Below are positions 5,568 through 57,018 of a stretch of 64,000 nt of DNA, piece by piece. The position numbers and the translations under genes are program-made. The stretch's first letter is position 1. Each line of letters opens with the position of its first letter. The notes below the pieces were generated by a model. It saw only the letters and a list, made by a program, of their open reading frames with translations. It was not told the origin of the DNA and ran no database searches. The stretch is from Salinispira sp. (lineage in GTDB: Bacteria; Spirochaetota; Spirochaetia; DSM-27196; Salinispiraceae), in the NCBI GenBank assembly GCA_965226555.1, contig CBDDDG010000021.1:320001-384000 (forward strand), read 5' to 3'.

Positions 5568-5611
5568 GGGCTGGTCAGAGGCGTGCGCCTCCGGTTCGCT
5601 TATGCGTCTGG
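5568..5611 (+). repeat. GC-rich hairpin element, degenerate copy b
   Basis: gggctggtcagaggcgtgcgcctccggttcgcttatgcgtctgg. Confidence 0.7.
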
Positions 5612-5630
5612 ATCAGGCTAATATCTCATT

Positions 5631-5780: not shown

Positions 5781-6195
5781 TCATATTCACCGTTCATATT
5801 TTACCCGTCTATATGGTATGAGCAAAAAATATATCGGTATGGTACACGCTGGAAATATGCTTTTGAAAATCCCCTGATATTCAGGGACTTCATATATTCA
5901 TACTTCAACAAAGACCTCGCGCTGAGCATTGTTCCCGGGAGCGTGCGTCAATACACCCTATAATACAGGGCGAATTCAACCATACGCTCACCCCATTCCT
6001 GCCCACTCATCCCTCCTTCCCCCATCCCTGAAAAAAAATTCACAAATTTTGCAAAATTCTTTCCGAAAACATAGTCAAAAATGACAGTTTACCCGTCACA
6101 GATATAGAGGAGAGAATTCACCATGGGACCATGTCGCCATGGGAGCTCCCCTATTCAGAAAGAAACGTTCAGAAAAAAACCTTCAGGAGGATTGT

Positions 6196-7284
6196 ATGAT
6201 CGATTTCAAAGAAAAACCCGCCCCCGTTCCCTACGACCAGGGATACCGCTCCCTGCTGTTCCAACCCGCAATAATGCTCCAATTTCTGCAACGCTTTGTC
6301 GGAGGCGCATGGACGAAAAAACTGCGAACCGAGGATATAACCATCGAAAACGGCACATTTTTCATCGACCATGCGAAAACACAAATGGCCGACATTGTCT
6401 GCAAAATCAGAACTCGGGATCACACGGGAGATGTTGCTATCTATGTGCTCCTTGAGCATCAGTCTGGAGTGGACAAAGACATGCCCCTCCGCATGTCGGA
6501 GTACACAAATCTTCTCTATAGAAACATTCACCGCTCCGGCGCAATTCCCGATGACTGCGAGTTGGTATTTCTGCCCATTGTGTTCTATAATGGTACGAGA
6601 AAATGGAAGGTGCCGGGGAATGTCAGAAAGCAACGGAAGCGGGAATTCCCGCAGTATCTTGCCCCTTTTCCTTATGATCTTATTAGCGAGAACGATTATT
6701 CTGCGGAACAGCTACAGCAGCGGGGAAGAATGTTTGCGGCTGTTATGTACCTTGATCTGTACTCGAAAAATCTGCTGAATACGGATTGGGACATTCGGAA
6801 GGTAGAGAAAGCGATAGCAGGAATGCTGAATGAAGAATCGCTGGAGCTGATAGAGGAATTTGTCGGCGTGGTAGATTCGATGTTCGGAATTGTTATAGAC
6901 TTAGATACGTTAATGAACAGATTAGAAAGAACAAAAGAACCGAGAGGTAAGGAGGTAGCAAAAATGTTCAGAATGAATGCGGAAACATTCAGAGCGCGCA
7001 TTGCGGAAATGGGTCGGCAGGAAGGACTACAGACAGGTCGGCAGGAAGGACTTCAGACAGGACTACAGACAGGTCGGCAGGAAGGACTGCGGACAGGTCG
7101 TGAAGAAGGACTTCAGAAGGGGCTACAGACAGGTCGGCAGGAAGGACTGCGAACAGGTCGTGAAGAAGGCATTCGAGAAACGGCCCGCAGTATGTTTTTG
7201 GAAGGCTTGTCGACCGAGGCTGTTCAGAGGATTACCGGGCTGAGCGATGAGGAAATGCGGACAGTGCGGAACGGATCGCATTAA
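6196..7284 (+). CDS. Rpn/YhgA-like recombination-promoting nuclease (PD-(D/E)XK), copy 1
   Basis: YD..Y..L, ADIV, YVLLEHQS..D..MPLRM..Y and PIVFYNG...W motifs; C-terminal GRQEG repeats; RBS aggagg before ATG 6196. Confidence 0.9.
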   Translation: MIDFKEKPAPVPYDQGYRSLLFQPAIMLQFLQRFVGGAWTKKLRTEDITIENGTFFIDHAKTQMADIVCKIRTRDHTGDVAIYVLLEHQSGVDKDMPLRMSEYTNLLYRNIHRSGAIPDDCELVFLPIVFYNGTRKWKVPGNVRKQRKREFPQYLAPFPYDLISENDYSAEQLQQRGRMFAAVMYLDLYSKNLLNTDWDIRKVEKAIAGMLNEESLELIEEFVGVVDSMFGIVIDLDTLMNRLERTKEPRGKEVAKMFRMNAETFRARIAEMGRQEGLQTGRQEGLQTGLQTGRQEGLRTGREEGLQKGLQTGRQEGLRTGREEGIRETARSMFLEGLSTEAVQRITGLSDEEMRTVRNGSH

Positions 7285-7296
7285 TTGGCGCCGCTC

Positions 7297-7339
7297 GGCC
7301 TGGTCGGCGCTGCGCGCCTGCTCGCCCATGCATCCGGGG
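7297..7339 (+). repeat. GC-rich hairpin element, copy c
   Basis: ggcctggtcggcgctgcgcgcctgctcgcccatgcatccgggg. Confidence 0.85.
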
Positions 7340-7347
7340 CGGTTAGA

Positions 7348-7389
7348 GAGTTCGAGGTGTCGCGCAACACGGTGCGGCGGTGGGTTCGG
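7348..7389 (+). mobile_element. 42-bp internal fragment of an IS481-like transposase gene
   Basis: 41/42 identical to the reverse complement of 50694-50735 (EFEVSRNTVRRWVR). Confidence 0.85.
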
Positions 7390-7400
7390 AGGATTGTTAT

Positions 7401-9003: not shown

Positions 9004-10401
9004 ATGAAGAATTTGAACATTAAACACCGGAAGCATTCCGCGCAGAAAGGTTTCGGATTGTACGCTCTCACGGCATTTTTTATTGCGGGAATACTTCTCA
9101 CTGCCTGTGATATGTGGGGGTTTTATGACGATGGTATTCACTATATCACCGGCACGGAATACGACCTCTACGGTTACAACAAAGACGGCTACAATGCTGA
9201 CGGTTACGATATTGATGGCTATAACGCAGATGGTTACGATGCGGAGGGCTACAACAAAAACGGTTACAATGCAGACGGCTACAATAGAAATGGTTATAAA
9301 GCAGACGGCTACAATGCTGCGGGTTTCAATGCTGACGGCAAACATCGTAACGGCACGAAATACAACGATGATGGCTATGACGAACAGGGTTATAACGCAG
9401 AAGGCTTTAACGCTGCGGGCAAACATCGCGACACCGGCGAGGAATACGACCTCTACGGTTATGGCAAAGACGGCTACAATGCAGCCGGTTTTGATGCCAA
9501 TGGCATTCACCGCGACACTGGCACACAGTACAACCTGTCCGGCTACGACGAAAATGGCTATGATCCATTTGGCTTTAACAGTGAAGGCATTCACCGCGAC
9601 ACTGGCACACAACATGACCTGCGCGGGTTTAAGAAAAACGGGTATAATGCCGCAGGTTTCTACCGAGACGATTTTCTCACACTTGCTGCTGCAGGGAATA
9701 CTGCACCATCCGGTATCTGGTCGGATGGAATAACGATGTGGGTGGCTGATAATACCAATGACAAAATCTACGCCTACAACATGGGTAGCAAGGAACGCGA
9801 TGCAGACAAAGATTTCAACACACTTACAGCTGCCGGGAATACCAACCCCAACGACATCTGGTCCGATGGAACAACAATGTGGGTAATAGATGCAAGCAAG
9901 GATAAAATCTATGCCTATAATATGGTGAGCAAGGAAAACGTACCGACAAAAACTATCTCCGTTGTTGCTGGTAGCGCGGGAATCTGGTCAGATGGAGAAA
10001 CAATGTGGGTAGTACGGGAGTTGGCTGATTCTCCTATTTATGCCTATAATATAAATACTGGGAATCGTACCGATACAAAAGATATTGAAATAATGTTTAC
10101 TGTCCGACGCCTCTGGTCAGATGGGGAAACAATGTGGGTGCTGCAAGCACTTGGCGCCAATAAAGGAATTGCAGCCTACCCGTTGGGCGGTGTCGGTGAC
10201 GGCGAAGTACGGTCTTCATCAAGAGATATCAACATCGCCATGCCTGCTGATATTAGGGGTGCGGGTACTACTGATGGTATTACTGACGCCTCCGGTATGT
10301 GGTCGGATGGGACAACAATGTGGGTGCTGGATAATGCCAGTGACAAAATTTACGCCTACGACTTAGCGACCGGAGCCCGCCCGCCCAAGGCAGCAGAATA
10401 A
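9004..10401 (+). CDS. Lipoprotein with GY(N/D)xx 5-aa repeats and C-terminal WSDG.TMWV repeats (probable beta-propeller)
   Basis: RBS ggagg; lipobox LLTAC; 15-bp tandem repeats; five WSDG repeats. Confidence 0.85.
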   Translation: MKNLNIKHRKHSAQKGFGLYALTAFFIAGILLTACDMWGFYDDGIHYITGTEYDLYGYNKDGYNADGYDIDGYNADGYDAEGYNKNGYNADGYNRNGYKADGYNAAGFNADGKHRNGTKYNDDGYDEQGYNAEGFNAAGKHRDTGEEYDLYGYGKDGYNAAGFDANGIHRDTGTQYNLSGYDENGYDPFGFNSEGIHRDTGTQHDLRGFKKNGYNAAGFYRDDFLTLAAAGNTAPSGIWSDGITMWVADNTNDKIYAYNMGSKERDADKDFNTLTAAGNTNPNDIWSDGTTMWVIDASKDKIYAYNMVSKENVPTKTISVVAGSAGIWSDGETMWVVRELADSPIYAYNINTGNRTDTKDIEIMFTVRRLWSDGETMWVLQALGANKGIAAYPLGGVGDGEVRSSSRDINIAMPADIRGAGTTDGITDASGMWSDGTTMWVLDNASDKIYAYDLATGARPPKAAE

Positions 10402-10658: not shown

Positions 10659-11105
10659 TTGAGAATGTCCCTGTCACATGTGAAACCCCCGCCTGCCCCA
10701 TCCCGAAAAAAAATAAATTTTTTTCAGAAAACATATTCAGAATCCCATAAATTTCTGTTTGCCGATGCGGAGTCCATACATCAACTGCTGCAATTTATTA
10801 ATGATGACTGGATACGGTATGTTTGCCCTGAGAACATTACCCTTATGAGCAACGAGTTCATCGAGAGAGTGCTCGGCAGAGAGCAGTCGAAGAATTTCAG
10901 GCGTAAAATATCGGACATTGTTGCGAAAGTTTCCTTCTGCTGCGGGAAAGAGAAGGAAGAGAAAATGGTGTATATTATTCTGGAGCATCAGTCATCTGTG
11001 GACTATGCCATGAGTGATCGCCAAATTTTCGAATATCCTGTTATCGATGTGAGAGCGCTTGAGGAGGATAAAATACTCAATTCCAGCGGTCGCGTGGCTG
11101 CCTAA
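10659..11105 (+). pseudogene. Truncated, internally deleted Rpn-family nuclease
   Basis: KISDIVAKV...YIILEHQSSVDYAM, no PIV.YNG segment, early stop. Confidence 0.7.
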
Positions 11106-14336: not shown

Positions 14337-14343
14337 ATCATTG

Positions 14344-14396
14344 AAACTTTTGCATTGGAAAATTCTGCTTGCACAATTTCCAGTAACAAAATTTTC
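14344..14396. repeat. AT-rich palindromic repeat
   Basis: ttttgcattggaaaattctgcttgcacaatttccagtaacaaaa. Confidence 0.8.
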
Positions 14397-14442
14397 TCAT
14401 TGTGTTTTTAATTTCTGAAAGCTACTTCGGGAGGGGCAGAGC

Positions 14443-32435: not shown

Positions 32436-32659
32436 TTATATGAGACCATTGCATAATCCATGGTTTTATTGATGTAGGGAAGGATGATAAAAAATTTGAG
32501 ATAAAGTGATGGGATGATGCGGGAAAAACGGGGTGATAACACCATCTGAGTGCCTGCAAAGGATCGCATTTCGCTCATTTTCGACCGTTTCTCCGCTGGT
32601 TTTTGTCTTTCGGGCGTCTGTTGCCGGTCGGCTTCTGCCGTTTGTCCCGAATGCGGTCG

Positions 32660-33757
32660 CTAAGCCGCCCATTTTCCCTGTTTCTGCAATTCCAAAATCT
32701 TCGGTACCCGTTTCAAATTATACGCAATAGCAGACAACAGATGCTGCGTATGCGCTTTTGTTATTCCGACATAGCGGGTTCTCCCCCCGCCAAACCATTG
32801 GTGCATTCCTCCGAATGTGCGTTCTATTTTGTACCGTCCGCCCTGTATCTCTTTGTTCCTCAGTTTCTGCTCCGCGGTCAATTGCTTCTTCTTCTCACCC
32901 TTCTTCGCTCTGGCTACCTTCCACATAATGCCGTCTTTCAGCTTTCTCTTCTTCAGCGCCGCTCGGTTCTTCGTGCTTGTATATCCTTTGTCCGCCTGCA
33001 CTTCTGCATTCTCATCCAATTGCCCCTTATCGAGTAGCGTTTCAAACACCGTACTGTCATGGACATTCGCCGGGGCTGGTCGGAGGCTGCGCCTCCTGCT
33101 CGCCCATGCGTCCGGGGTGGTCTTGACCGCTACCATAAGCCCATTGTCATCGGCAAGACAATGCTTCTTCGCGCCAAAATGAAATTCCCCGTTCTTTTTC
33201 GTCCACCTCATATCGGTATCTACTCTGTCCGCAAACTTCTCCGGTTCCCGCTCTAAGGATTTATTATCCGATTGAGCGCATTTATCACTGTCTGTGCGAT
33301 CAACAATCCCGCGGGGTTTTCTCGGACTTCTGGTAATGCTCGCATCAACTTTGACCACTTTCTTTATCATGATCCCGCGCGTTTCAAGCTGTCGGTTTAT
33401 TTCAGTAAGCAACTGGTCAAAGATTCCCGCTTTCGTCATGGCCGTGCGAAACCGGCTGAGAACACTGTGATCCGGCACATCATCTTCCACAATAAGACCG
33501 CAGAAATTCGATGCTCCCATGCTGTCGTTCACCATATCTTCCACACCATAATCACTGAGATTATTCCACATCCCCAATAGAAGCATTTTGAACAGCAACA
33601 GGCCAGGGTAGGCAGCCCTGCCGACCGCGCTGCTTCCTCGGGTATCGTGTTCTGTAATAATATCCTCAATGGGCTTCCAGTCGATAATCTGGTCAATTTT
33701 CCGATAGAAGGTGTTTTTCCGTGTACGTCTTTCCATACTGTCTGCGACAAATGACAT
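32660..33757 (-). CDS. IS5-family transposase carrying a 14-aa in-frame insertion
   Basis: PDHSVLSRFR, VDAS, ADKGY, RYKIERTFG; TTP[DAWASRRRSLRPAP]ANVHD. Confidence 0.9.
   Translation of the reverse strand: MSFVADSMERRTRKNTFYRKIDQIIDWKPIEDIITEHDTRGSSAVGRAAYPGLLLFKMLLLGMWNNLSDYGVEDMVNDSMGASNFCGLIVEDDVPDHSVLSRFRTAMTKAGIFDQLLTEINRQLETRGIMIKKVVKVDASITRSPRKPRGIVDRTDSDKCAQSDNKSLEREPEKFADRVDTDMRWTKKNGEFHFGAKKHCLADDNGLMVAVKTTPDAWASRRRSLRPAPANVHDSTVFETLLDKGQLDENAEVQADKGYTSTKNRAALKKRKLKDGIMWKVARAKKGEKKKQLTAEQKLRNKEIQGGRYKIERTFGGMHQWFGGGRTRYVGITKAHTQHLLSAIAYNLKRVPKILELQKQGKWAA
33070..33117 (+). repeat. GC-rich hairpin element, copy d (36-bp core between ccgggg duplications)
   Basis: ccgggg-ctggtcggaggctgcgcctcctgctcgcccatgcgt-ccgggg. 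Confidence 0.92.
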
Positions 33758-33966
33758 AGTGTGCTCCTGAGATTTGATCATGGTAAGGATCATAACATAT
33801 ATATGAGGACTGATTACAGCCAGAAAGCAAAAAATCGAAAGAAAAATTCAAAAAAGTTCATATGGGATGTTGACACTCTGGATAAATGAACGGTACTATA
33901 ATATCACCGATGAGACTGTTGCCATGCAATGATCTCTATATATATGGACGGTTATAAACTGTGGGT

Positions 33967-35358
33967 ATGAAAATTAGACAATTCAGAATCTGGCTGGTCA
34001 TTACCATTGTTCCGATTCTATTTCTCGCATCCTGCTCCATGGACAATCCTGTGCCCGACCCCATGGACAATCCGGTGGACGAGCCCATGGACAATCCGGC
34101 GGACGAGCCCATGGACAATCCTGCGGACGACCTCATAGCGAAAATACTGAATCCGCAGGTTGCTGTTTTTCAGGCTGCCGATACGCAGGAGGATCGGGGG
34201 TTTGGATACGATGTTGATATATCCGGCAATGCGGTAATTGTCGGAACCACTGATACTGGCGGCTCCCCGCGGGAATCGGTGTATGTTTTTGAATGGGACG
34301 GAACAGAATGGCGGCAGGCCTATAACAGGGAAGTAAGCCCCTCTGAGGCGACTGCCTTCGGAGAATCGGTTGCCATAAGCGGCAATACCGCAGCCTTCGG
34401 ACAGGGCGGCTATGAATATTCGGGAAATACGCCCGGGTTTGCGCACATTCTCGCCAGAGACAGTACGGGCGCATGGACGGCGGCAACAGGGTCGATTAGC
34501 GGAACCTCCGGCACAGATCAGCGTTTTGGATGGGATGTTGCCGTCGATGGAAGTACGGTGCTGGTTGGCAGCGGATATGACATTGATATTGATATTAACG
34601 GGGAGGGAGAATCAGATTATTACTACCTCGTTCAGGTACTCGACAGCACAGACGCGAGCATCAATTATTATGTTCCCTACCCTGAAATTGAAACAACAAT
34701 AAATCATTTCGGCGTTGCCCTTGCCATAAGCGGCAATACCATTGCTGTTGGAAATGTCGCTGCCACAAACCAAGTAGCCCGCTTCATCATTAACGTTTTC
34801 AAGGTTCCGGGAGCCGATGAAAAGGGCAGCGTGTATGTGTACACCAGCAACAGCGCAGGTTCCTGGGCAGACAGTACCCCCGCGCACATTAGCCCCAATG
34901 ACCTTGAAATTGGTGATGATTTCGGAACCGCCATTGCCGCGGATTCCGCCGCGCTTGTCGTTGGCGCGCCGGGAGATTCCGCCGACCGCGGCGCGGTCTA
35001 TGTTTTCGGAAAAAGCGGGGGAACATGGAGCGCAGCTCCGACCGCGGTACTCAGGGCTGCCGGTGGGGCTGAAGGCGACAGATTCGGGCACAGTGTTGAT
35101 GTTTCGGTTTCGGGGAGGGTTGTTATTGTCGGAGCTCCGCAGGCCGATAGCGCCGCAGGCGCTGTGTATGTTTTTTACCTCAAAAATGGAACATGGACAG
35201 AGTCAAAATTCACCGCCCGAAATGAAAACGGACAGGCAGACAGGGCAGCCAATAACCTGTTCGGCAATAGCGTTGCCATAGACGGCGCTGCCGTCATTAT
35301 TGGCGAACCGGGCTATTCAAACAGGAATGGCCGTGTGCATATTCTCAATAACAATTAG
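33967..35358 (+). CDS. FG-GAP repeat (integrin-alpha-like propeller) lipoprotein
   Basis: Lipobox FLASC; four 24-bp MDNP repeats; repeated FG.SVAISG...VGAP...G.VYVF. Confidence 0.88.
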   Translation: MKIRQFRIWLVITIVPILFLASCSMDNPVPDPMDNPVDEPMDNPADEPMDNPADDLIAKILNPQVAVFQAADTQEDRGFGYDVDISGNAVIVGTTDTGGSPRESVYVFEWDGTEWRQAYNREVSPSEATAFGESVAISGNTAAFGQGGYEYSGNTPGFAHILARDSTGAWTAATGSISGTSGTDQRFGWDVAVDGSTVLVGSGYDIDIDINGEGESDYYYLVQVLDSTDASINYYVPYPEIETTINHFGVALAISGNTIAVGNVAATNQVARFIINVFKVPGADEKGSVYVYTSNSAGSWADSTPAHISPNDLEIGDDFGTAIAADSAALVVGAPGDSADRGAVYVFGKSGGTWSAAPTAVLRAAGGAEGDRFGHSVDVSVSGRVVIVGAPQADSAAGAVYVFYLKNGTWTESKFTARNENGQADRAANNLFGNSVAIDGAAVIIGEPGYSNRNGRVHILNNN

Positions 35359-35361
35359 AAG

Positions 35362-35428
35362 GTTTTGCTACTGGAAATTGTGAAAGCACAATTTTCCAAG
35401 GCAAAACTTTATCAAAGCAAAAATTTTT
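35362..35428. repeat. AT-rich palindromic repeat (reverse orientation)
   Basis: ttttgctactggaaattgtgaaagcacaattttccaaggcaaaactttatcaa. Confidence 0.8.
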
Positions 35429-36533: not shown

Positions 36534-36714
36534 AGAAAGTTTTGCAAAATGCAAAACTTTCTATAAAATAGGAGAATGCTAAGCACAAAGAAAGCATTCC
36601 TGACGGACGCATGGGCGAGCAGGAGGCGCAGCCTCCGACCAGCCCTCGGAAACTTTTGCTATTGGAAATTGTGCTTGCGCAATTTTCCAATGCAAAAGTT
36701 TCAAGGAGAAAGTT
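36534..36714. repeat. Composite: AT-rich repeat, GC hairpin copy e (36604-36645, minus strand), AT-rich repeat
   Basis: gagaatgctaagcacaaagaaagcattcc; cggacgcatgggcgagcaggaggcgcagcctccgaccagccc; ttggaaattgtgcttgcgcaattttccaatgcaaaa. Confidence 0.85.
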
Positions 36715-36762
36715 TCTTGACAGGCACGGCAGAAGTGTTATAACATCATACATGTTGTTCAC

Positions 36763-36952: not shown

Positions 36953-38351
36953 TTATTCTGCCTTGGGAGGACGCTCGCGGGTTGCCATGTCGTAGGCATA
37001 GATTGTTGCTGATTGTTCATCCAACACCCACATTGTTGTTCCATCCGAATAGGTGCTAGTGGGATGTTGCATAGTGCCCCCAATAAGATTATTGAAATCT
37101 TTTGAGGAATCTCGTCCCCTAGTATCCAGAGTATAGGCATAGATTTTGTCGGTGTCATAATCGGGCACCCACATTGTGCTCCCATCCGACCAAATGCCTG
37201 TAATTTTCATATTCTCATCGTCAAGTATGTCCCTGTCAAAATCTTTAGCGGCATCGCGAGTTCCGCGTTCATTCTTAGCCATTTTGTAGGCATAGATGAT
37301 CGCAGCACTGCCAACAGCCACCCACATTGTTTCAGCATCTGCCCAGATGCCGCCAAGGAGGATTCCTCCCGATGGAATAGTTATGCTAAAATTTTCATTC
37401 TCCATAGACGGCATCTTGGTTGCCATGTCGTAGGCATAGATTGTGCTTGTTTTTTCATCCAGCACCCACATTATTTCACCATCTGACCAGATGCTTCTGG
37501 GGTCATCAATAGTGCTACCAAGGTCGAAATCTTCATCCGCATCGCGCGCCGTGGTCTCCATATTATAGGCATAGATTTTTTCGGTAGTATCCTTGTTGTT
37601 ATCATTATTCAGAACCCACATTGTTGTTCCGTCCGACCAAATGTCTCTGGGTTTAGCATTTTCCAAGGTAGGGAAATCGTCTCGGTAAACACCTTCGTCA
37701 TTGTAGCCGTCTTTCTTGAAATCGCGCAGGTCATATTTCGTTCCAGTATCCTGATGATTACCGTCAGCATTAAAACCGGCTGCATTGTAGCCGTTCGCGT
37801 CATAACCATTTGGGTTGTAGTGCGTACCGGTGTCGCGGTGAATGCCCGCGGCATTAAAGCCGTTTATGTCGTAACCGGCCGCGTCATAGCCCGCTGCGTT
37901 AAAGCCATCTTTGTCGTACCCGTTTGACGAATAGCCTTCTGCATTGTAACCATCTTTGTCGTACCCGTTTGATGAATAGCCTTCTGCATTGTAGCCGTCT
38001 TTGTCGTACCCGGCCGCGTCATAGCCCGCAGCGTTAAAGCCGTCTGCGTTATAACCCTGCTCGTCATAGCCCTGTGGGTTTGTATATCGTGTCGGTGTCT
38101 CGGTGTTTACCGTCAGCATTAAAACCGGCCACATTGTAGCCGTTCGCGTCATAACCGTAGAGGTCGTATTCCGTGCCGGTGATATAGTGAATACCATCGT
38201 CATAAAACCCGCGCATATCGCAGGCGCTGAGAACGAGTATGAGGGAAAACACAAAAAGGATTCCCCGCAACAAATGCGGGCTTTGGAAATGGTTCCGGGA
38301 TTTTACGCTATGCGCAGGTGCCAGCGTGGATTGATTGTTATAGTTCATCAT
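36953..38351 (-). pseudogene. GY-repeat/WSDG-repeat lipoprotein, paralog of 9004-10401, with a +1 frameshift near 38080
   Basis: ORF 38064-38354 has lipobox VLSAC and DMRGFYDDGIHYITGTEYDLYGY; ORF 36953-38254 carries the remainder; may be a sequencing error. Confidence 0.8.
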
Positions 38352-38540
38352 CAAAAACTCCTATCATCAATAATAATTGAAACCTTTGAGAATTGCAAGC
38401 ACATTATGAATAATCTCATGTGTTTTTATTGGGATATCAGTATTTGACAAATTTTTTCGGATGATATTGCTCGCTCCCGCTTCCCCGCCTATTGATATGA
38501 AAAACGGTACTGTCTATGGTGCTTACCGCTTCGTTAATAA

Positions 38541-38940
38541 GAGACCGTTGCATAATCCATGGTTTTATTGATGTAGGGAAGGATGATAAAAAATTTGAGA
38601 TAAAGTGATGGGATGATGCGGGAAAAACGGGGTGATAACACCATCTGAGTGCCTGCAAAGGATCGCATTTCGCTCATTTTCGACCGTTTCTCCGCTGGTT
38701 TTCGTCTTTCGGGCGTCTGTTGCCGGTCGGCTTCTGCCGTTTGTCCTGAATGCGGCTGCTAAGCCGCCCATTTTCCCTGTTTCTGCAATTCCAAAATCTT
38801 CGGTACCCGTTTCAAATTATACGCAATAGCAGACAACAGATGCTGCGTATGCGCTTTTGCTATCCCGACATAGCGGGTTCTCCCCCCGCCAAACCATTGG
38901 TGCATTCCTCCGAATGTGCGTTCTATTTTGTACCGTCCGC
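38541..38940 (-). mobile_element. Truncated copy (400 bp, 3' end) of IS5 element B
   Basis: Near-identical to 32442-32841 including the IR gagaccgttgcataat. Confidence 0.92.
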
Positions 38941-39025
38941 GCTGGTCGGAGGCTGCGCATCCTGCTCGCCATGCGTCCGGGCTGGTCGGAGGCTGCGCCT
39001 CCTGCTCGCCATGCGTCCGGGCTGG
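38941..39025 (+). repeat. Tandem dimer of the GC hairpin element (two 40-bp units)
   Basis: gctggtcggaggctgcgc(a/c)tcctgctcgccatgcgtccgg x2, then gctgg. Confidence 0.9.
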
Positions 39026-43279: not shown

Positions 43280-44935
43280 ATGGCCTCAGACATTATAGAT
43301 GCAATTAAAGCGGTTGTTGCGGAAAAAGGTATCTCAGAAGATCTTGTTCGGCACACAATTGAGGAATTTCTCCTTGCAGCATACAAGAAAAAATACGGTG
43401 CCTCGGATAATGCGGTTATTAAATTTTCGGATGATGATGTATCGATCTATGCCCGCAAGGCGATAGTCGAAGAAGTGCTTAATCCGATAGAGGAAATCGG
43501 GCTGTCTGAAGCGCAGAAGTACAATTCAGATGCCGACATTGGCGATGAATTGCTTATCAAGATTGATCCGAAAACCTTCGATCGCTCCGCCGTTCAGAGC
43601 GCAAAACAACGAGCGCAGCAGGAACTGAGAGACATAAAAAAAGACACCCTCTATTCTGAATTCAAAAGTAAAGAGGGAGAAATGGTCATTGGGTACTATC
43701 AGCGGGAGCGGAACGGAACCATTTTTGTCGACCTCGGAAAGACTGAGGGAATTCTCCCGCGCCGCTATCAGAGCCCCCGGGAATCCTATCGAACGAATGA
43801 CAGAATCAAAGCCATGATTTATGAAGTTGAGAAATCCGCAACCGGACTTCAAATCATCCTCACACGAACTCATACTGAATTTGTTCATAAAATATTTGAA
43901 CTGGAAGTTCCCGAAATTTACGACAAAACAGTTGAAGTGTTTAAAATCGTCAGGGAGCCGGGCTACCGGACAAAAATTGCCGTGTATTCAAACCGCATCG
44001 ATGTTGATCCTGTCGGCGCCTGCGTTGGTCTGAAAGGAGTCCGCATACAATCCATTGTCCGTGAACTTGAAGGTGAAAAAATTGACATGCTGAAATTTGC
44101 CACCGATCCCCGGGAATTAATACAAAATGCGCTCAGTCCGGCTGTCGTCAGCCAAGTAGTTATTGTCGATGAAATAAAAAAGCACGCGCTCGCAATTGTT
44201 GAAGAAGATCAGCTCAGTCTTGCCATCGGTAAACAGGGCCTCAACGTACGGCTCGCAAACAGACTTGTCGACTGGAACATTGATGTTAAGACAGAAGAAC
44301 AATTTGAGGAAATGGATATTACTATTGCCAAAAAACAGGCAATAAGCGAACTGTTTAACGATGACGAGGTTGAAATTACACGAATTGCAGAACTGCCGAA
44401 TATAAGCCCCCGTCTGGTTGCAATTCTTACCCGCGATAACATTGAATACATTGAAGACCTCATGAGTCTCGATCAGGATGAAATGAAACAGCTGGCTAAC
44501 ATTACTGAAGATGACGTGGCATATATTCAGAAACTTATGAAAGATTCGCTTATTGTTGAGGATGGAAGCCCCTCCGAAGCCGAAGCTCAAGCCGCCGAAA
44601 ATACCGAAAATACTGAAGATGCCGGACATACTGAAGCTCAGAATGCGGACGGCGATAAAGGCGGGGGCGATAAAAAAGCATTGCCTGCCGAAGATGAGCC
44701 TGCGAAGGAACCTGAAGATGAAGCAGAAGATGAGATCACGTTTGTATCGGAACTTCCAGATATTCCTGAGAGGATCGTTACTGTACTTAAAGCAGAGGGA
44801 ATTGTTGAAATTATTGATCTCCTGAATATGAATGACGATGAGCTCCGTAAAATTTCGAATCTTGAAGATGAAGATATTACCCTCATTCAGGATATTATCA
44901 AAAATACCATTGAAGTTATTGAAGAGGATGAATAG
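43280..44935 (+). CDS. nusA: Transcription factor NusA
   Basis: REPGYRTKIAV, DPVGACVG.KG.RI, LSLAIGKQGLNVRLA; acidic C-terminal repeats. Confidence 0.97.
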   Translation: MASDIIDAIKAVVAEKGISEDLVRHTIEEFLLAAYKKKYGASDNAVIKFSDDDVSIYARKAIVEEVLNPIEEIGLSEAQKYNSDADIGDELLIKIDPKTFDRSAVQSAKQRAQQELRDIKKDTLYSEFKSKEGEMVIGYYQRERNGTIFVDLGKTEGILPRRYQSPRESYRTNDRIKAMIYEVEKSATGLQIILTRTHTEFVHKIFELEVPEIYDKTVEVFKIVREPGYRTKIAVYSNRIDVDPVGACVGLKGVRIQSIVRELEGEKIDMLKFATDPRELIQNALSPAVVSQVVIVDEIKKHALAIVEEDQLSLAIGKQGLNVRLANRLVDWNIDVKTEEQFEEMDITIAKKQAISELFNDDEVEITRIAELPNISPRLVAILTRDNIEYIEDLMSLDQDEMKQLANITEDDVAYIQKLMKDSLIVEDGSPSEAEAQAAENTENTEDAGHTEAQNADGDKGGGDKKALPAEDEPAKEPEDEAEDEITFVSELPDIPERIVTVLKAEGIVEIIDLLNMNDDELRKISNLEDEDITLIQDIIKNTIEVIEEDE

Positions 44936-44946
44936 GGAGCATTATC

Positions 44947-47900
44947 ATGAACCAGCAGGAACCCAAGGCGGAGCTCATAAAGCGGTCTGCAAAAGAAAAA
45001 AAACCAGCAGAACCCTCTGAGCAGGAACAAAAGTCGACGAAGAAAAAGGTAGTAGTTAAGAGAAAACCAACCGCAAAAGAATCCCCTTCCAATACCAAAA
45101 CCGCTACCAAAACCGCTCAGCGCCCATCCCGCAACCCGAACCAGGCAAAAAATACCGCAATGAAGCAGGGCGTAGTCGGCGGGAAATATGTCGGCCATCC
45201 AAGCGGCCGTAAAAATTTCGGACAATATGCAAAAGACCAAACACACAAATCCTACAAATCGAACAGGGCAAAACCCTCCGATACGAATCAGGGCTATAAT
45301 CGAAACCGCAACGACTACCGCCGCCCGGGCGGTGGAGCGAACCGTTTCGGCGGAGCGAACCGTTTCGGCGGGGGAGGGCGGGGACCAGGCTACGGCGGGG
45401 GATCCGGCTACGGCGGCGCCGGCCGCGGTTCTCCCGGCGGCTACCGCCCCTCCGGTTACGGTTCTTCCGGCGGCTACGGCGCCGGGGGCGCCGGCCGCGG
45501 TTCTTCCGGCGGACCTCCCCGCCCCGAAAGCGATGCGCGCCCATCCGGCACCGGCAAGCGATCCTTCAAGCCAAAGAAAAATACCAACAACTATCGGCGG
45601 AAAGATCGGCATCAGGAGAAGGAATTCCAATTCAAGAAAAAATCGATTGAACTGGCTAATCCCGTTCCAAAATCCATTGATATGATGGAAGTTATTACCG
45701 TTTCCGATCTGGCCCGAAAAATGAACCTGAAGGCCTCCGAGCTCATTGCCAAACTCATGGGAATGGGTATGATGGTTACCATTAACCAGCAGATCGATGC
45801 GGACACTGCCGGCATACTCGCTTCCGAATATCATTGTGAAGTGAAAATCGTATCCCTTTACGATGAAACACTTATTGAAACAGAAGAAGATCATGACCAT
45901 CAACTTCAGCCCCGCCCCCCCATTGTTACGGTTATGGGACACGTTGATCATGGGAAAACAAAACTCCTCGACACCATTCGTTCCAGTAATGTCATTGGCG
46001 ATGAATCGGGCGGAATTACCCAGCACATCGGCGCGTATCAGGTGGAATCATCAGGGAATAGCATTACCTTTCTCGATACTCCCGGGCACGAAGCCTTTAC
46101 GCTCATGCGATCCCGCGGCGCTCAGGTAACCGATATTGTTGTTCTTGTTGTGGCGGCGGATGATGGTGTTATGCCCCAGACAGTTGAGGCAATTCATCAT
46201 GCTCAGGATGCCGATGTGCCGATTATTGTTGCGGTAAATAAGGTTGACCTTCCCAATGCGAATGTTGACAAGGTGAAACAGCAACTTTCCGAGCACAAAC
46301 TTCTTGCTGAAGATTGGGGCGGCGATACGATGTTTCATGAAATTTCCGCGCTCAAAAATGAAGGAATATCGGAGCTCCTTGAAAACATCATTATTCAGGC
46401 AGAACTCATGGAGTTGCGGGCAAACCCCGATGCCCGCGCCGAGGGACGAATCATTGAATCGAGAATTGATCCCGGCAGGGGGACAATTGTAACCATTCTC
46501 ATTGAACGGGGAAAGTTGCGCGTTGGCGATAATTTCCTCGCGGGCGTATACCCCGGGCGCATTAGAGCAATGTTTAATGACAGAGGACAGGAACTCAATG
46601 CCGCCGGGCCCTCCATGCCGGTTGAAATAACCGGTCTTTCCGGTATTCCGAACACGGGCGATCCCTTTCAGGCGACCGAGTCCGAAAAGAAGGCCCGTCA
46701 GGTTGGCGGAAAGCGGCAGGAACTTAAAAAACTTGAAGCCGCAAAAAATGTTAAAAAAATCACCCTCAACAATCTCTACACCAGCATTCAGGAAGGAGAA
46801 ATTCAGGAAGCAAAAATAATTATTAAGGGAGATGTTCAAGGGTCGGTAGAGGCCATTCAAGGCTCATTGGAAAAACTTTCCACATCGGAAATTCGCATTC
46901 AGGTTATTCATTCCGGAGCTGGAGCAATTAACGATTCCGATGTTAACCTCGCCGTTGTTTCACAGGCAATAATCATTGGTTTTCATGTGCGGCCGACAAA
47001 CCATGCGCAGATCCTTGCCGATCGGGAAAAGGTCGAAATTCGTAAGTACAGCGTCATTTACGATGTTATTGAAGATATTCGATCGGTTATGGAAGGAATG
47101 CTGAGCCCCGAACTGAAGGAAGAGAACATCGGTACGGTCGAGATTCGCGAAACCTTCAAAGTTCCCCGCATAGGTATTGTTGCCGGCTGCTTTGTTTCTC
47201 AGGGAGTCGTTAAACGAAACAGCAGGGCACGGCTGTACCGCGAGGGTGTGGAAATTTTTAATGGAACGATGAACAGCCTGAAGCGTTTCAAGGACGATGC
47301 TAAGGAGGTCGCTAAGGGCTATGAGTGCGGTATTGGACTGAAAGATCATAGCGATATAAAAGTTGGCGACATTCTTGAGATTTTCGAAATGAAGGAAATT
47401 GCCCGTAAGCTCGGTAAGCCTCTTGTTGAAATTGAAGCAGAAAAGAAAGAATCGGGTAAGAGTAAGGCCAATGCTGCGGATAAGGTTGCGGCTAAGAGTA
47501 CGCCTAAGAGTACGGCTGCGCCTACGAGTACGGCTGCGGCGAAGAGTACGGCTGAGGCTACGAATACGGATACGGCTAAGAATACGGCTGCGGCTAAGAA
47601 TACGGCTACGGCTAAGAGTACGGATAAGGCGAAGAGTACGGCTGCGCCTAAGAATACGGCTGCGGCTAAGAGTACGGCTGCGGCTACGAATACGGCTGAG
47701 GCTAAGAGTACGGCTGAGGCTAAGAGTGCGGCTGAGGCTAAGAATACGGCTGTGGCGAAGAGTACGGCTGAGGCTACGAATACGGATAAGGCGAAGAGTA
47801 CGGCTGCGGCGAAGAGTACGGCTGCGGCTAAGAATACGGCTGCGGCTAAGAATACGGCTGTGGCTACGAGTACGGATACGGCTGCGCCTAAGAATACGGA

Positions 47901-48975
47901 TAAGAGTGCGGCTAAAAGTACGGCTAAGAGTACGGCTGCGCCTACGAGTACGGCTACGGCTAAGAGTGCGGCTGCGGCTAAAAATACGGCTGTGGCTAAG
48001 GCTAAGAGTACGGATAAGGCGAAGGTTGCGGATAAGGCTAAGAGTACGGCTGCGGATAAGAATACGGCTGTGGCTACGAGTACGGATACGGCTGCGCCTA
48101 AGAATACGGATAAGAGTGCGGCTAAAAGTACGGCTAAGAGTACGGATACGGCTAAGAGTACGGCTGCGGCTAAGAATACGGCTGTGGCGAAGAGTACGGC
48201 TGAGGCTACGAATACGGATACGGCTAAGAATACGGCTGCGGCTACGAATACGGCTGAGGCTAAGAGTACGGATACGGCTAAGAGTACGGCTGCGCCTAAG
48301 AATACGGCTGCGGCTACGAATACGGCTGCGGCTACGAATACGGATACGGCTAAGAATACGGCTGCGGCTAAGAGTACGGCTGCGGTTAAGAATACGGCTG
48401 CGGCTACGAGTACGGCTGCGGCTAAGAATACGGCTGCGGCTAAGAGTACGGCTGCGGCTACGAATACGGATACGGCTAAGAATACGGCTGAGGCTAAGAG
48501 TACGGATACGGCTAAGAGTACGGCTGCGGTTAAGAATACGGCTGCGGCTACGAGTACGGCTGCGGCTAAGAATACGGCTGCGGCTAAGAATACGGCTGCG
48601 GCTAAGAGTACGGCTGAGGCTACGAATACGGATACGGCTAAGAATACGGCTGAGGCTAAGAGTACGGATACGGCTAAGAGTACGGCTGCGCCTAAGAATA
48701 CGGATAAGAGTACGGCTGCGGCTAAGAATACGGCTGCGGATAAGAGTACGGCTGCGGCTACGAGTACGGATACGGCTAAGAGTACGGCTGCGCCTAAGAA
48801 TACGGCTGAGGCTAAGAATACGGCTGAGGCTAAGAATACGGCTGCGGCTAAGAATACGGCTGCGGCTAAGAGTACGGCTGCGGCTAAGAGTACGGCTGAG
48901 GCTAAGAATACGGCTGCGCCTAAGAATACGGCTAAGGCGAAGAGTACGGATAAGGCTAAGAGTACGGGAGAATGA
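44947..48975 (+). CDS. infB: Translation initiation factor IF-2 with a ~520-aa repetitive C-terminal tail
   Basis: GHVDHGKT, DTPGH, NKVD; SLKRFKDD.KEV..G.ECGI then A/K/S/N/T repeats. Confidence 0.95.
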   Translation: MNQQEPKAELIKRSAKEKKPAEPSEQEQKSTKKKVVVKRKPTAKESPSNTKTATKTAQRPSRNPNQAKNTAMKQGVVGGKYVGHPSGRKNFGQYAKDQTHKSYKSNRAKPSDTNQGYNRNRNDYRRPGGGANRFGGANRFGGGGRGPGYGGGSGYGGAGRGSPGGYRPSGYGSSGGYGAGGAGRGSSGGPPRPESDARPSGTGKRSFKPKKNTNNYRRKDRHQEKEFQFKKKSIELANPVPKSIDMMEVITVSDLARKMNLKASELIAKLMGMGMMVTINQQIDADTAGILASEYHCEVKIVSLYDETLIETEEDHDHQLQPRPPIVTVMGHVDHGKTKLLDTIRSSNVIGDESGGITQHIGAYQVESSGNSITFLDTPGHEAFTLMRSRGAQVTDIVVLVVAADDGVMPQTVEAIHHAQDADVPIIVAVNKVDLPNANVDKVKQQLSEHKLLAEDWGGDTMFHEISALKNEGISELLENIIIQAELMELRANPDARAEGRIIESRIDPGRGTIVTILIERGKLRVGDNFLAGVYPGRIRAMFNDRGQELNAAGPSMPVEITGLSGIPNTGDPFQATESEKKARQVGGKRQELKKLEAAKNVKKITLNNLYTSIQEGEIQEAKIIIKGDVQGSVEAIQGSLEKLSTSEIRIQVIHSGAGAINDSDVNLAVVSQAIIIGFHVRPTNHAQILADREKVEIRKYSVIYDVIEDIRSVMEGMLSPELKEENIGTVEIRETFKVPRIGIVAGCFVSQGVVKRNSRARLYREGVEIFNGTMNSLKRFKDDAKEVAKGYECGIGLKDHSDIKVGDILEIFEMKEIARKLGKPLVEIEAEKKESGKSKANAADKVAAKSTPKSTAAPTSTAAAKSTAEATNTDTAKNTAAAKNTATAKSTDKAKSTAAPKNTAAAKSTAAATNTAEAKSTAEAKSAAEAKNTAVAKSTAEATNTDKAKSTAAAKSTAAAKNTAAAKNTAVATSTDTAAPKNTDKSAAKSTAKSTAAPTSTATAKSAAAAKNTAVAKAKSTDKAKVADKAKSTAADKNTAVATSTDTAAPKNTDKSAAKSTAKSTDTAKSTAAAKNTAVAKSTAEATNTDTAKNTAAATNTAEAKSTDTAKSTAAPKNTAAATNTAAATNTDTAKNTAAAKSTAAVKNTAAATSTAAAKNTAAAKSTAAATNTDTAKNTAEAKSTDTAKSTAAVKNTAAATSTAAAKNTAAAKNTAAAKSTAEATNTDTAKNTAEAKSTDTAKSTAAPKNTDKSTAAAKNTAADKSTAAATSTDTAKSTAAPKNTAEAKNTAEAKNTAAAKNTAAAKSTAAAKSTAEAKNTAAPKNTAKAKSTDKAKSTGE
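47480..48966 (+). repeat. ~1.5-kb tandem array of mostly 18-bp units (gctaagaatacggctgcg) built from hexamers
   Basis: Directly visible; encodes AKNTAA/AKSTAE-type units. Confidence 0.97.
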
Positions 48976-48979
48976 GTAC

Positions 48980-49669
48980 TTATTGCATCGTGTAACGAAG
49001 ATGCGGAGTATAACCGGCTGGAATGAGAATGCGCTGTTCGTCTTCGGAGCTGAGTTCAATACCCTTTTCTGTGCGCTGTATAACAGTGAAACAGTCGCCG
49101 AGTTTTATATTGTTTTCATAAATAAAGCTCAACAATCCTTCTGTTTCTTCCCCCTCTTCACTTATTCTCATAAGAATAAAGGTATCCTGCGGTTTAAGTA
49201 ATTGAATAGATGGAGCATTGAGTATTTCCTGCTCCCCGGGACTTCCCGGTATTGGGTTCCCATGAGGGCAGGTCTGTGGTCTTCCCAGTACTTCATACAT
49301 TTTTTCAGCGAATTTATCGGAAATGTTATTTTGGAGATGCTTTGCTTCTTCATCTATCTCATCCCAGGTCATATTGAGGTTTTTCAGGAGAAAATGTTCA
49401 AGAAGATAATGCCGACGGAGCATTTTTACCGCAAAGTCTTCTCCGTCTTTTGTCAGAGCGATATCACCGTAGCGTTCCTGGGAAAGATATCCGAGGATTT
49501 TCAGGCGCTTAACAGCCTGACTTACCGCGGGGCGGCTCACTTTGAGCCATGAAGCAATACGTGAATTTGTTATTATTCCATCATCCCTGCGAATAAGGTA
49601 CATGGCGGCGAGATAATCGCTTGCGGCAGGGAAGCTTTGGAGAATTTCACGGTATTCCATAAGCGCCAT
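48980..49669 (-). CDS. DtxR/MntR-family metal-dependent regulator with FeoA-like C-terminus
   Basis: DYL..MY, HTH IA..L.VS.PAVS, RRH.LLE.FL, EA..L, P.TCPHGNPIP. Confidence 0.92.
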   Translation of the reverse strand: MALMEYREILQSFPAASDYLAAMYLIRRDDGIITNSRIASWLKVSRPAVSQAVKRLKILGYLSQERYGDIALTKDGEDFAVKMLRRHYLLEHFLLKNLNMTWDEIDEEAKHLQNNISDKFAEKMYEVLGRPQTCPHGNPIPGSPGEQEILNAPSIQLLKPQDTFILMRISEEGEETEGLLSFIYENNIKLGDCFTVIQRTEKGIELSSEDEQRILIPAGYTPHLRYTMQ

Positions 49670-52913: not shown

Positions 52914-53010
52914 TGCTCGCCATGCGTCTGTTGCTGAGGCGGGGGGGCTGGTCGCGCTGCTCGCCATGCAGCCGGGCTGGTCGGAGGCTTGCGTCCGGCT
53001 CGCTTATGCG
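52914..53010 (+). repeat. Degenerate tandem copies of the GC hairpin element
   Basis: tgctcgccatgcgtc; gggctggtc...ctgctcgccatgcagccggg; ctggtcggaggcttgcgtccggctcgcttatgcg. Confidence 0.75.
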
Positions 53011-53302
53011 CGCTCAATTTTCGGGCTATATCTTACGCAGTCAGTCGGATATCGCCATAAACGCGCTATCCTGAGCGCACCCCTTCCCGTCCACTCACCC
53101 GCATTTCAGAGCCCTCCCCTCCCGTAGCCCCAAAAAAATCACACATTTTGCAAAATTCTTTCAAATTCTCTCAAAAAACATAGTCAAAAATGACTTTTTA
53201 CCCGTTATAGATATAGAGGGGAGAATTCACCATGGGACCATGTCGCCATGGGAACTCCCCTATTCAGAAAGAAACGTTCAGAAAAACCTTCAGGAGGATT
53301 GT

Positions 53303-54379
53303 ATGATCGATTTCAAAGAAAAACCCGCCCCCGTTCCCTACGACCAAGGATACCGCTCCCTGCTGTTCCAACCCGCAATAATGCTCCAATTTCTTCAACG
53401 CTTTGTCGGAGGCGCATGGACGAAAAAATTGCGAACCGAGGACATAACCATTGAAAACGGTACCTTTTTCATTGACCATGCGAAAACACGGATGGCCGAC
53501 ATTGTCTGCAAAATCAGAACTCGGGATCACACGGGAGATGTTGCTATCTATGTGCTCCTTGAGCATCAGTCTGGAGTGGACAAAGACATGCCCATCCGCA
53601 TGTCGGAATATACGAATCTGCTCTATAGAAACATTCACCGCTCCGGCGCAATTCCCGATGACTGCGAGTTGGTATTTCTGCCCATTGTGTTCTATAATGG
53701 CACGAGAAAATGGAAGGTGCCGGGGAATGTCAGGGAGCAGAATACGCGGGAATTCCCGCAGTATCTTGCTCCTTTTCCCTACGATCTTATTAGCGAGAGC
53801 GATTATTCTGCGGAGCAGCTGCAGCAGCGGGGAAGAATGTTTGCGGCTGTTATGTACCTTGATCTGTACTCGAAAAATCTGCTGAATACGGATTGGGACA
53901 TTCAGAAGGTGGAGAAAGCGATAGCAGAAATGCTGAATGAGGAATCGCTGGAGCTGATAAAGGAATTTATCGGCGTGGTAGATTCGATGTTCGGAATTGT
54001 TATAGATTTAGATACGTTAATGAATCAATTAGAAAGAACAAAAGAACCGAGAGGTAAGGAGGTAGCGAAAATGTTCAGAATGAATGCGGAAACATTCAGA
54101 GCTCACATTGCGGAGATGGGTCGGCAGGAAGGACTACAGACAGGACTGCGAACAGGTCGACAGGAAGGCCGTGAAGAAGGTCGGCAGGAAGGATTGCAGA
54201 CAGGTCGTGAAGAAGGACTTCAGACAGGACTGCAGAAAGGACTACAGACAGGTCGGCAAGAAGGCATTCGAGAAACGGCCCGCAGTATGTTTTTGGAAGG
54301 GTTGTCGACCGAGGCTGTTCAGAGAATTACCGGGCTGAGCGATGAGGAAATGCGCACATTGCGAAACGGGTCGCATTAA
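53303..54379 (+). CDS. Rpn-family nuclease, copy 2
   Basis: Highly similar to 6196-7284; C-terminal repeat order and number differ. Confidence 0.9.
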   Translation: MIDFKEKPAPVPYDQGYRSLLFQPAIMLQFLQRFVGGAWTKKLRTEDITIENGTFFIDHAKTRMADIVCKIRTRDHTGDVAIYVLLEHQSGVDKDMPIRMSEYTNLLYRNIHRSGAIPDDCELVFLPIVFYNGTRKWKVPGNVREQNTREFPQYLAPFPYDLISESDYSAEQLQQRGRMFAAVMYLDLYSKNLLNTDWDIQKVEKAIAEMLNEESLELIKEFIGVVDSMFGIVIDLDTLMNQLERTKEPRGKEVAKMFRMNAETFRAHIAEMGRQEGLQTGLRTGRQEGREEGRQEGLQTGREEGLQTGLQKGLQTGRQEGIRETARSMFLEGLSTEAVQRITGLSDEEMRTLRNGSH

Positions 54380-56815: not shown

Positions 56816-56818
56816 TAC

Positions 56819-57018
56819 AAAGTTTTGCAGAAATAAAATTTTCTGCAAATTGAGAGAATGCTGAGAATAGAAAAAGCATTCCAACCCGGACGTATGGGCA
56901 AGCGGGAGGCGCAGCCTCCGACCAGCCCTCTGAAACCTGCGCGTTACGCAAAAGTTTCATGTAGAAAATTTTGCATTGGAAAATTGTGCGTGCACAATTT
57001 CCAGTAGCAAAAGTTTCA
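56819..57018. repeat. Composite: AT-rich repeat, GC hairpin copy (56885-56928, minus strand), AT-rich repeat
   Basis: Same module types and order as 36534-36714. Confidence 0.85.

Follow-up and report, generated by a model that had tools for sequence, protein, structure and literature searches.

Elements of the IS200/IS605 family of insertion sequences (ISs) are described as carrying, 5' of the hairpin foot, a guide that pairs with the cleavage site, and as having only one active strand, and TnpA-REP as requiring a 5' tetranucleotide together with a mismatch in the stem (PMC3333891). The CGTC repeats, according to the account of Di Nocera 2013 (PMC3733652), lack a dedicated transposase. Here we report on a hairpin unit of 40-46 nt found within an IS5-type transposase gene of a Salinispira sp., in a stretch of 64,000 nucleotides (the window; contig CBDDDG010000021.1, positions 320,001 to 384,000), which belongs to a hairpin family that is real, widespread and apparently undescribed. 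Judged by analogy, the unit would work like a one-hairpin element of the REP/IS200 type, yet it is not a REP.

The insert occupies positions 33070-33117, which on the plus strand read CCGGGG, 36 nt and CCGGGG again, inside an open reading frame (ORF) on the minus strand (32660-33793) that matches DDE_Tnp_1 and DUF772 and is thus an IS5-type DDE transposase. The host element (32442-33936, minus strand) has terminal inverted repeats and a 5-bp target duplication, and its transposase contains 14 extra residues. The original prediction held that removal of 42 bp restores the motif TTPANVHD, and a natural allele bears this out: in the window's own genome (2.98 Mb, 93.5% complete; G labels below denote other genomes and L labels loci), a 95%-identical IS5 copy at C1:57370-58825 is exactly 42 nt shorter, holds one CCGGGG instead of two and reads TTPANVHD. 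The insert is therefore confirmed as a precise 42-bp in-frame insertion with an empty allele in the same genome. This genome holds five full-length IS5 copies, each flanked by its own 5-bp target duplication, and the same 14 extra residues are present in four of them, the fifth being the empty one. A sixth, truncated copy (C10:480732-481221) carries a different inner-stem variant of the unit at the identical site and terminates there, and a seventh (window 38537-38944) terminates at two hairpin units. Since the empty copy lies only 3 single-nucleotide polymorphisms (SNPs) from two of the filled copies (the window copy being 26-32 from all others), precise loss, repeated insertion or conversion must have taken place; the SNP pattern would fit each of the three, which cannot be told apart by it.

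To find further copies in this genome we used a profile built from its own copies, keeping hits at E <=0.01, which gave 151 hits at 111 loci. A separate count of full units gave 93, at 70 loci (54 single, 9 double and 7 triple, the clusters being mostly head to tail), compared with 0 in each of 3 shuffles, and two of the 93 look spurious. Within the window the profile places full units at 5483, 7300, 33073, 36604, 38941 and 38979. Besides ISs, units of the family sit in tRNA genes, terminators, other repeats and, in the window's genome, one housekeeping-type protease gene, RseP-like when named by eye (C1:80811-82298), in which one full and several partial units form an in-frame insertion.

All copies listed in the original prediction were present, some of them decayed. 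A copy with a short inner stem lies in the loop of a terminator-like repeat (5483-5523, plus strand, by profile), followed by a degenerate copy (5568-5611, minus strand). Just after an Rpn/YhgA-like gene, a profile-detected copy (7297-7337, minus strand) abuts an IS481-like fragment (7338-7396). Another profile hit (36604-36645, plus strand) is nested, with no duplication, in the spacer of a second hairpin element of ~131 bp, and two head-to-tail units (38941-39020, minus strand; profile and IS comparison) are joined to the IS5 fragment mentioned above (38537-38944) at a junction-like stretch. A mosaic of degenerate and partial units lies upstream of an Rpn/YhgA-like gene (52914-53010, minus strand), and a copy with substitutions lies beside the second hairpin element (56886-56928, plus strand; predicted at 56885). 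Three of these loci touch IS DNA, as had been claimed, with the copy at 33070 inside IS5, that at 38941 joined to an IS5 fragment and that at 7297 abutting the IS481-like one.

On the minus strand, the unit opens with a base X and 0-2 nt of spacer. GG, two bases of free sequence and GCAT come next, and then an arm of 4 nt whose last base is C. GAGCA and GACCA enclose a stem-loop of 11-21 nt, likewise of free sequence, and the 3' arm closes the unit. In the window copy, the 42-nt unit thus extends over 33074-33115 (minus strand), its ends being placed by the boundary rule of the family, as the 6-bp repeat permits other registers in this copy. X (33115) and one spacer base are followed by GG (33112-33113), two free bases and GCAT (33106-33109), which together form the unpaired 5' tail, and then by the 5' arm of the outer helix (GGGC, 33102-33105), tail and arm together spanning 33102-33115. 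A fixed 5x5 internal loop, GAGCA opposite GACCA (33077-33101, by alignment), encloses a free inner stem of 6 bp with a C-GCA-G triloop (33082-33096, by fold and covariation), and the 3'-arm bases occupy 33076-33074.

Two helices covary around this fixed internal loop. Among distinct sequences, 90 have an inner part of 15 nt; in these, 94.3% of the 900 helix cells were paired (29-34% in slid controls), and two-sided changes occurred in 9 of the 10 pairs, in 218 cells compared to 56 in shuffles. At least 5 perfect inner-stem pairs were found in 68 of 100 distinct inner sequences and in 0.25% of shuffles. Among held-out metagenome matches, complementarity at arm positions 2 and 3 was seen in 65 and 64, respectively, of the 71 that were stem-positive, versus 18 and 12 of the 60 that were stem-negative. 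The conserved columns were built into the later search patterns and their invariance is not independent, while the helix covariation was not forced; the internal-loop motifs GAGCA and GACCA were first seen unforced, in BLAST hits of relatives. The two inner-stem variants that the original prediction described as altered on both arms are both real, and the stem does covary.

The same BLAST searches of relatives recovered the two unit ends enclosing unrelated yet still paired inner stems. A search with an exact pattern returned 113 loci from 12 of the 64 parts of the GTDB collection (estimated at about 670 stretches), of which 85 are in Bacillota/Clostridia, 18 in spirochaetes and 4 in other or unassigned lineages; the remaining six, in Nocardia, Ancylobacter and Piscinibacter, lack a stem and were discarded as matches by chance. 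With the outer helix left free, the pattern turned up in 24 of the 70 genomes from the window's order, a slightly stricter one matched 7 of 251 genomes of its phylum, and in the clostridial order of G290, 44 of 117 genomes matched, with up to 117 exact copies. Metagenomes gave 131 matches, 71 of them with a paired inner stem, and viral contigs hold few units (4 convincing among 120 matches of a loose scan that yielded mostly chance hits). Reversed-pattern controls of the searches by order and phylum were 0 throughout, and these, together with the empty shuffles and the occurrence in multiple genomes, rule out an assembly artefact or chance as the source of the family. To summarize, the family is spread over spirochaetes and clostridia, is common, and rides on ISs, introns and phages.

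One such host is a group II intron of G004 (e.g. L228, L243, L244, L247, L250 and L255), present in nine near-identical copies with an intact reverse transcriptase (RT) of 465 amino acids (aa), all nine with the same hairpin-unit variant upstream of the RT. This intron seems to have spread together with the unit, and a DNA search of 99 genomes found no empty allele of it. Taken together, the filled IS5 copies, each with its own 5-bp duplication, and the intron copies beside the same unit variant indicate that hosts go on moving with the element. Hence, the earlier view that the element disrupts or fragments ISs holds for the two IS5 copies that end at it, but not for these mobile hosts.

We next consider how a unit is delimited and what it is inserted into. 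Empty alleles were found in the window's genome for the terminator-like repeat, for the second hairpin element and for C16:90713, and nothing is duplicated at C16:90713 or in the spacer of the second repeat. In two group II introns the empty alleles show an insertion of 42 nt each, and comparison with empty alleles likewise shows exact insertion in the IS91 genes L261/L263 and the IS110 gene L274, an empty allele being available for L213 as well. In a tRNA-like gene, a 44-nt unit splits the T stem and the gene is no longer called by ARAGORN; the tRNA clusters of two genomes (L456 and L457; L446 and L447) share a tRNA-Leu(TAG)-like gene split by a unit in its T stem. The sequence common to both unit ends is mostly 2-3 nt long (range 0-12, in 84 blocks), and flank conservation consists of a weak G on one side (45 of 89) and GG(G) on the other. 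The last target base is C in 36 of 48 cases and the penultimate one in 26 of 48, the commonest target class being CC-like, often after a purine. Thus, a single unit of 40-46 nt is inserted without true target duplication, mostly after a pyrimidine or CC, and the fixed pyrimidine preference at the target is solid. Given this preference and the unit ends, the 6-bp repeat in the window's IS5 element, originally taken for a duplication, is a target that resembles the element's own junction, into which one unit was inserted, rather than a target-site duplication. A CCGGGG or CCGGG integration core does not hold up either, as the core common across genomes is only 2-3 nt and is sometimes absent.

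The 3' end was delimited by comparing terminal units with units that precede another unit. The 3' arm matched the 5' arm at positions 2, 3 and 4 in 36, 38 and 21 of 41 terminal variant units, and in 75, 74 and 61 of 77 units preceding another one. The fourth match thus falls off in terminal units and is mostly kept before a next unit, which argues for cleavage just past the third 3'-arm base. Base X was complementary to the first arm base at 75 of 96 sites and, in held-out data, at 12 of 12 new clostridial and 25 of 34 metagenome sites, and in the tRNA and IS91 cases it is not derived from the target, being missing from the empty sites. As X could meet this partner only over a junction of the two ends, these data imply an intermediate whose ends are joined. 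Units in arrays are linked by 0-2 nt (83 distinct direct unit-unit junctions), and such arrays would form as new units insert at the 3' end of existing ones. In G006, an eight-unit array (L296, G006:C1:1800541-1800837) has an unpaired outer helix and a G preceding GAGCA, and represents either decay followed by slippage or another subtype.

Which strand folds, and as which nucleic acid, was approached through mismatches and loops. On the plus strand, mismatches in 95 distinct stems were A.C in 20 cases and G.T in 3, and on the minus strand they were A.G in 40, G.T in 25 and A.C in 11. Among the 202 foldable of 211 distinct stems, the loops included 74 of the type C-GNA-G, 22 of C-GNNA-G (17 GNYA and 5 GNRA) and 16 of C-ANA-G. 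Loops of G-N-A and G-NN-A closed by a C-G pair make very stable DNA mini-hairpins, and RNA would favor GNRA. The minus-strand loops and wobbles together suggest that the element folds as a single-stranded DNA (ssDNA) hairpin on the minus strand. An RNA fold on the plus strand is disfavored by the mismatch and loop types, despite predicted energies that are equal for the two strands. The target hairpins of diversity-generating retroelements, whose formation in DNA has been shown, have a loop of the form 5'-GRNA (PMC3240598). Elements with an ssDNA phase, such as IS91 genes, group II introns and the RNA region of an IS605 TnpB, contain many of the copies, these being examples and not a controlled count.

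On balance, we lean towards a non-autonomous ssDNA element that a protein recognizes by its tail and internal loop, and that is cleaved beyond the third 3'-arm base, joined at its ends and moved to a target similar to its own end. The minus strand would fold as a DNA hairpin, of which the protein would read the 5' tail (GG..GCAT) and the internal loop, the inner stem serving as a structural handle only. Cleavage would fall between the third and fourth pairs of the outer helix, the fourth forming only when the ends are joined, in a circle or at a tandem junction, and the unit would then be transferred to a target like its own 3' end, the same step building arrays. The enzyme would act in trans, its chemistry being probably of the HUH tyrosine type, as in IS200/IS605 and REP transposases, and carried out by a protein outside the families that we tested. 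The broader claim of the original prediction, that this is a gene-less, non-autonomous and precise mobile hairpin with head-to-tail arrays, is backed by the empty alleles and the covariation. A bolder proposal, which we put forward tentatively and as a minority possibility, is that the family constitutes a new class of minimal transposon: a circularizing ssDNA hairpin of 40-46 nt, with its own target guide of 2-3 nt and an enzyme family new as a transposase, present in two phyla.

Several findings weigh against this account. The unit ends are sometimes inexact, with one extra base in the IS91 genes L233 and L249, other registers at two sites of the window's genome and a spacer that varies from 0 to 2 nt. 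No clear replication-strand bias was found using GC skew as a proxy (54 versus 81, with p 0.025 before filtering and no significance once skew thresholds were applied; 20 versus 30 in the window's genome alone), and the joined-end circle and the ssDNA state would both be deductions from the comparison of sequences. The sequences compared are kin, so the covariation counts are not independent events, and the window copy on its own folds no better than its shuffles (z -0.02 to -1.28) which, with strands of equal energy, means that the structural case rests on comparison. Matches to Y1, IS110, Y2, the IS91 zinc finger, RT and Rep_trans were all missing from the window's genome (93.5% complete, the controls of two of these searches being silent). 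Likewise, a scan of 317 neighbor ORFs (134 of 140, 112 of 115 and 71 of 81, the rest being duplicates, element-derived, shadow frames or skipped, with 68 more read by eye only) gave no recurrent partner and no GIY-YIG. The remaining difficulties concern target choice. In the discovery set, the pair of target bases agreed with the arm in 40 of 84 cases, compared to 23.5 by permutation (0 of 5000), with five other offsets not significant, and in 35 of 74 versus 21.9 once 5 possible remnants were removed. However, of the 32 positions for which the arm calls for G, just 7 have this base in the target, and the held-out metagenome sites fail the test as first specified (5 of 30 versus 7.3 for arms that are not CC), with an offset of one more base giving 15 of 30 versus 8.5. 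A spacer-tolerant test devised post hoc gave 29 versus 20.9 in the discovery set (p 0.002) and 13 versus 9.9 in the held-out one (p 0.096). That the 5' arm of the outer helix also pairs with the target, and so partly chooses it, is thus speculative.

The lack of a transposase partner, among the neighbors or by co-occurrence, is what would be expected if there were no dedicated transposase at all, and an Ssn-like ssDNA nuclease or host repair cut the hairpin, with template switching, slippage and gene conversion copying the unit into microhomology. The imprecise ends fit this explanation as well, as do the targets in the window's genome, whose likeness to the unit junction extends over as much as about 10 nt and at which two IS5 copies are fused to units; moreover, SsnA is described as binding and cutting a directional hairpin repeat as ssDNA (PMC11893778). 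Yet many targets have just 2-3 nt in common with the unit, and the covariation of base X across the junction would be hard to keep without a defined cut-and-join. As for a nuclease, the window's genome gave two GIY-YIG matches, in frames of 601 and 304 aa, and no small GIY-YIG gene, and DUF559 and GxxExxY were each found in 3 of 5 carriers tested. We therefore hold this explanation to be unlikely, if still worth weighing. The same genome also has an ORF of 290 aa that matches GIY-YIG weakly and appears to contain an internal duplication (C21:221282-222151).

Although the ssDNA account supposes an enzyme outside the tested families, known ones could have moved the unit, namely a Y1 (RAYT or IS200/IS605 TnpA) or IS91 Y2 enzyme that was supplied transiently and has since been lost. 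The anatomy fits REP/IS200 logic as described in PMC3333891, and copies lie in IS91 genes of several genomes and in an IS605 element. The units in IS91 genes, however, break the frame and do not mark IS91 ends, and a co-occurrence analysis of 24 carriers and 46 non-carriers among the 70 genomes of the window's order (kin, and so not independent) found Y1 in 7 and 17 of them, and IS91 in 7 and 11, respectively. PF01797 (Y1/RAYT) had no match in the window's genome, G004, G006, G299 or G083, of which G004, G006 and G299 are single-contig carriers, and none of 17 Y1 loci from three carriers holds a unit. Searches by tblastn of the window's genome with the Y1, IS91, IS110, RT and MobL proteins of relatives found no remnants, nor was a MobL-type relaxase found there. 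The original prediction had suggested looking for a RAYT/HUH nuclease or recombinase gene flanked by copies; none turned up among the neighbor ORFs of carriers or at the Y1 loci, and we consider this explanation decidedly unlikely.

RT was the only family enriched in carriers (10 of 24 versus 7 of 46, p 0.02 uncorrected), and many copies lie in or beside group II introns, which would suit a route in which the unit is transcribed and reverse transcribed, its cDNA folds as a DNA hairpin and arrays grow by template switching, the 0-2-nt spacer being explicable as untemplated addition. But the enrichment is partly circular, since introns carry the unit, RT had no match in the window's genome, G006 or G299, and the target duplication expected of target-primed insertion is missing. 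The loops are also of the DNA type, and we regard this route as quite improbable. Lastly, an IS110 recombinase or Rpn/YhgA proteins might act on the unit as a non-autonomous substrate. A short core and arrays are IS110-like, and units lie in or beside IS110 genes at three independent loci, though PF02371 (IS110) had neither a match nor a remnant in the window's genome. That genome has 140 Rpn matches, and an Rpn ORF is found no more than 300 bp away from 42 of its 111 element loci, compared to 207 of 1362 gaps, an adjacency that appears to be co-amplification of Rpn genes with their flanks. Rpn matched in 16 of 24 carriers versus 23 of 46 non-carriers, and, like Y1 and RT, had no match in the single-contig carriers G006 and G299, so that this explanation is very improbable indeed. 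Overall, co-occurrence over the 70 genomes offered no usable candidate mobilizer, and the neighbor ORFs turned out to be hosts: group II introns, IS91, IS110, IS66, the IS605 TnpB region, toxin-antitoxin, cassette-like, phage and housekeeping genes. Clustering of the neighbors recovered hosts only (RT, IS110, IS91, toxin-antitoxin and cassette-like genes). Two apparent partners were rejected: inverted unit pairs, which might have been repeats around a partner gene, enclosed a decayed IS91 gene (L135) or tRNA clusters (L446, L447), and of the two units on either side of a TnpB gene, one lies inside the RNA region of TnpB.

How, then, does the unit compare with described elements? With the REP/BIME/REPIN-RAYT systems it shares an imperfect hairpin of 30-45 nt with a conserved 5' tetranucleotide and a mismatch region, a single active (here, folding) strand, arrays and occasional in-frame copies, as these systems are described in PMC3333891, PMC3733652, PMC3116915 and PMC6006769. 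It differs in that its tag is GCAT in all aligned copies and not GTAG or CGTC (a CGTC in the window copy lies on the opposite strand, at free positions), in occurring as singles and head-to-tail arrays and not as inverted dimers, in lacking a RAYT beside it and in several carrier genomes, and in having a variable outer helix that is completed only across joined ends. In addition, it occurs in clostridia, which are not among the host phyla listed in PMC3733652. The label REP-like is thus apt for the hairpin logic but not for membership, and no match to a known REP family was found. IS200/IS605 elements and their non-autonomous derivatives likewise have no terminal inverted repeats and no true target duplication, insert 3' of a short motif like their own 3' end and pass through a joined-end intermediate (PMC3333891, PMC6006769), which the unit would share. 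The unit, however, has one hairpin for both ends within 40-46 nt in place of separate left and right ones, no clear lagging-strand bias, and neither a Y1 gene nor a remnant of one in the window's genome. Unlike those of a miniature inverted-repeat transposable element, its ends are not inverted repeats and there is no fixed-length duplication (0-12 nt, mode 2-3, none at two sites of the window's genome).

The small dispersed repeats (SDRs) SDR1-8 of the Nostocaceae, described by Elhai and colleagues in 2008, are cited in PMC5861425, PMC4390886 and PMC2884548. They are reportedly 21-27 nt long, about half the length of the hairpin unit. Like the unit, they are very small, gene-less, precise and nested, show compensatory changes and have no known enzyme; the unit occurs in other phyla, has a fixed internal loop and tail and no HIP1 target. 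Likened by description, these cyanobacterial elements would be the closest kind in behavior. The NTS/SRM-Ssn repeats are also directional ssDNA hairpins with a conserved unpaired 5' sequence and hundreds of copies, but they are described as having a tag of the CGTC type and a small GIY-YIG gene with repeats on both sides (PMC11893778), neither of which was found for the unit. Flavo-1 hairpins (RF01705) are dispersed as well and combine internal loops with an inner stem of free sequence, but are longer and have another conserved sequence (PMC2864571). A Flavo-1 copy abuts a unit at L104:437-514, with similar flanks in L053, L055, L078 and L088, and this family, which is catalogued as a candidate RNA, has the behavior of a further mobile hairpin dispersed in spirochaetes. 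At the gathering score, Rfam found only rRNA and tRNA in the window and no family covering the unit in 10 short loci (RF01705 included). CRISPR arrays differ in that the units abut with 0-2 nt and have no unique spacers, and the R-box core of integron attC sites was absent from the alignment, the three tyrosine-recombinase matches in the window's genome being XerC/XerD-like by eye. Our literature search found no description of the family, though a mention in a closed paper or a supplement is possible.

Other repeats and genes accompany the units. The second modular hairpin element (~131 bp) is present, without evident duplication, in three IS5 copies (C26:9485-9616, C10:540010-540141 and C10:480601-480732) and has relatives in the window near 5630-5740, 14338-14403, 35351-35426, 36536-36715 and 56818-57018; one composite, in which a 42-nt unit sits within the spacer of this element, recurs about ten times. 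A third dispersed repeat, at 5470-5545 in the window and at many other sites of the genome, is a terminator-like, GC-rich hairpin whose highly variable loop hosts hairpin units and unit fragments. Rpn/YhgA-like genes are hugely expanded (172 ORFs by a local profile alongside the 140 Pfam matches, compared to 0-9 in relatives) and often stand in tandem with the same flanking repeats, examples in the window being 6139-7284, 10659-11105 and 53240-54379. In L237, L459, L462, L463, L464 and L065, a longer repeated module containing the hairpin unit precedes each short gene of cassette-like arrays (GNAT, glyoxalase, toxin-antitoxin). Elsewhere in the window, an IF-2 ORF (44947-48975, 1342 aa; region 44887-49201) overlaps an array of 12/18-bp repeats with >80 copies from ~47350 onward, its domain order and repeat tract suggesting a long repetitive extension or read-through, and two related ORFs with decapeptide (GYN/GYD) repeats lie in inverted orientation at 9004-10401 and 36953-38254.

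The spread of repeats of <50 bases that have no terminal repeats or neighboring transposase, such as SDRs, CGTC repeats and in-frame palindromic inserts, is an old open question. The family described here makes this question testable, as its empty alleles are clean, each helix varies naturally, the cut position is defined and one base pair needs joined ends to close. The hairpin element also adds residues to proteins in frame, and, if its enzyme is new, it would represent a very small ssDNA cut-and-join system with an end that may be redesigned.

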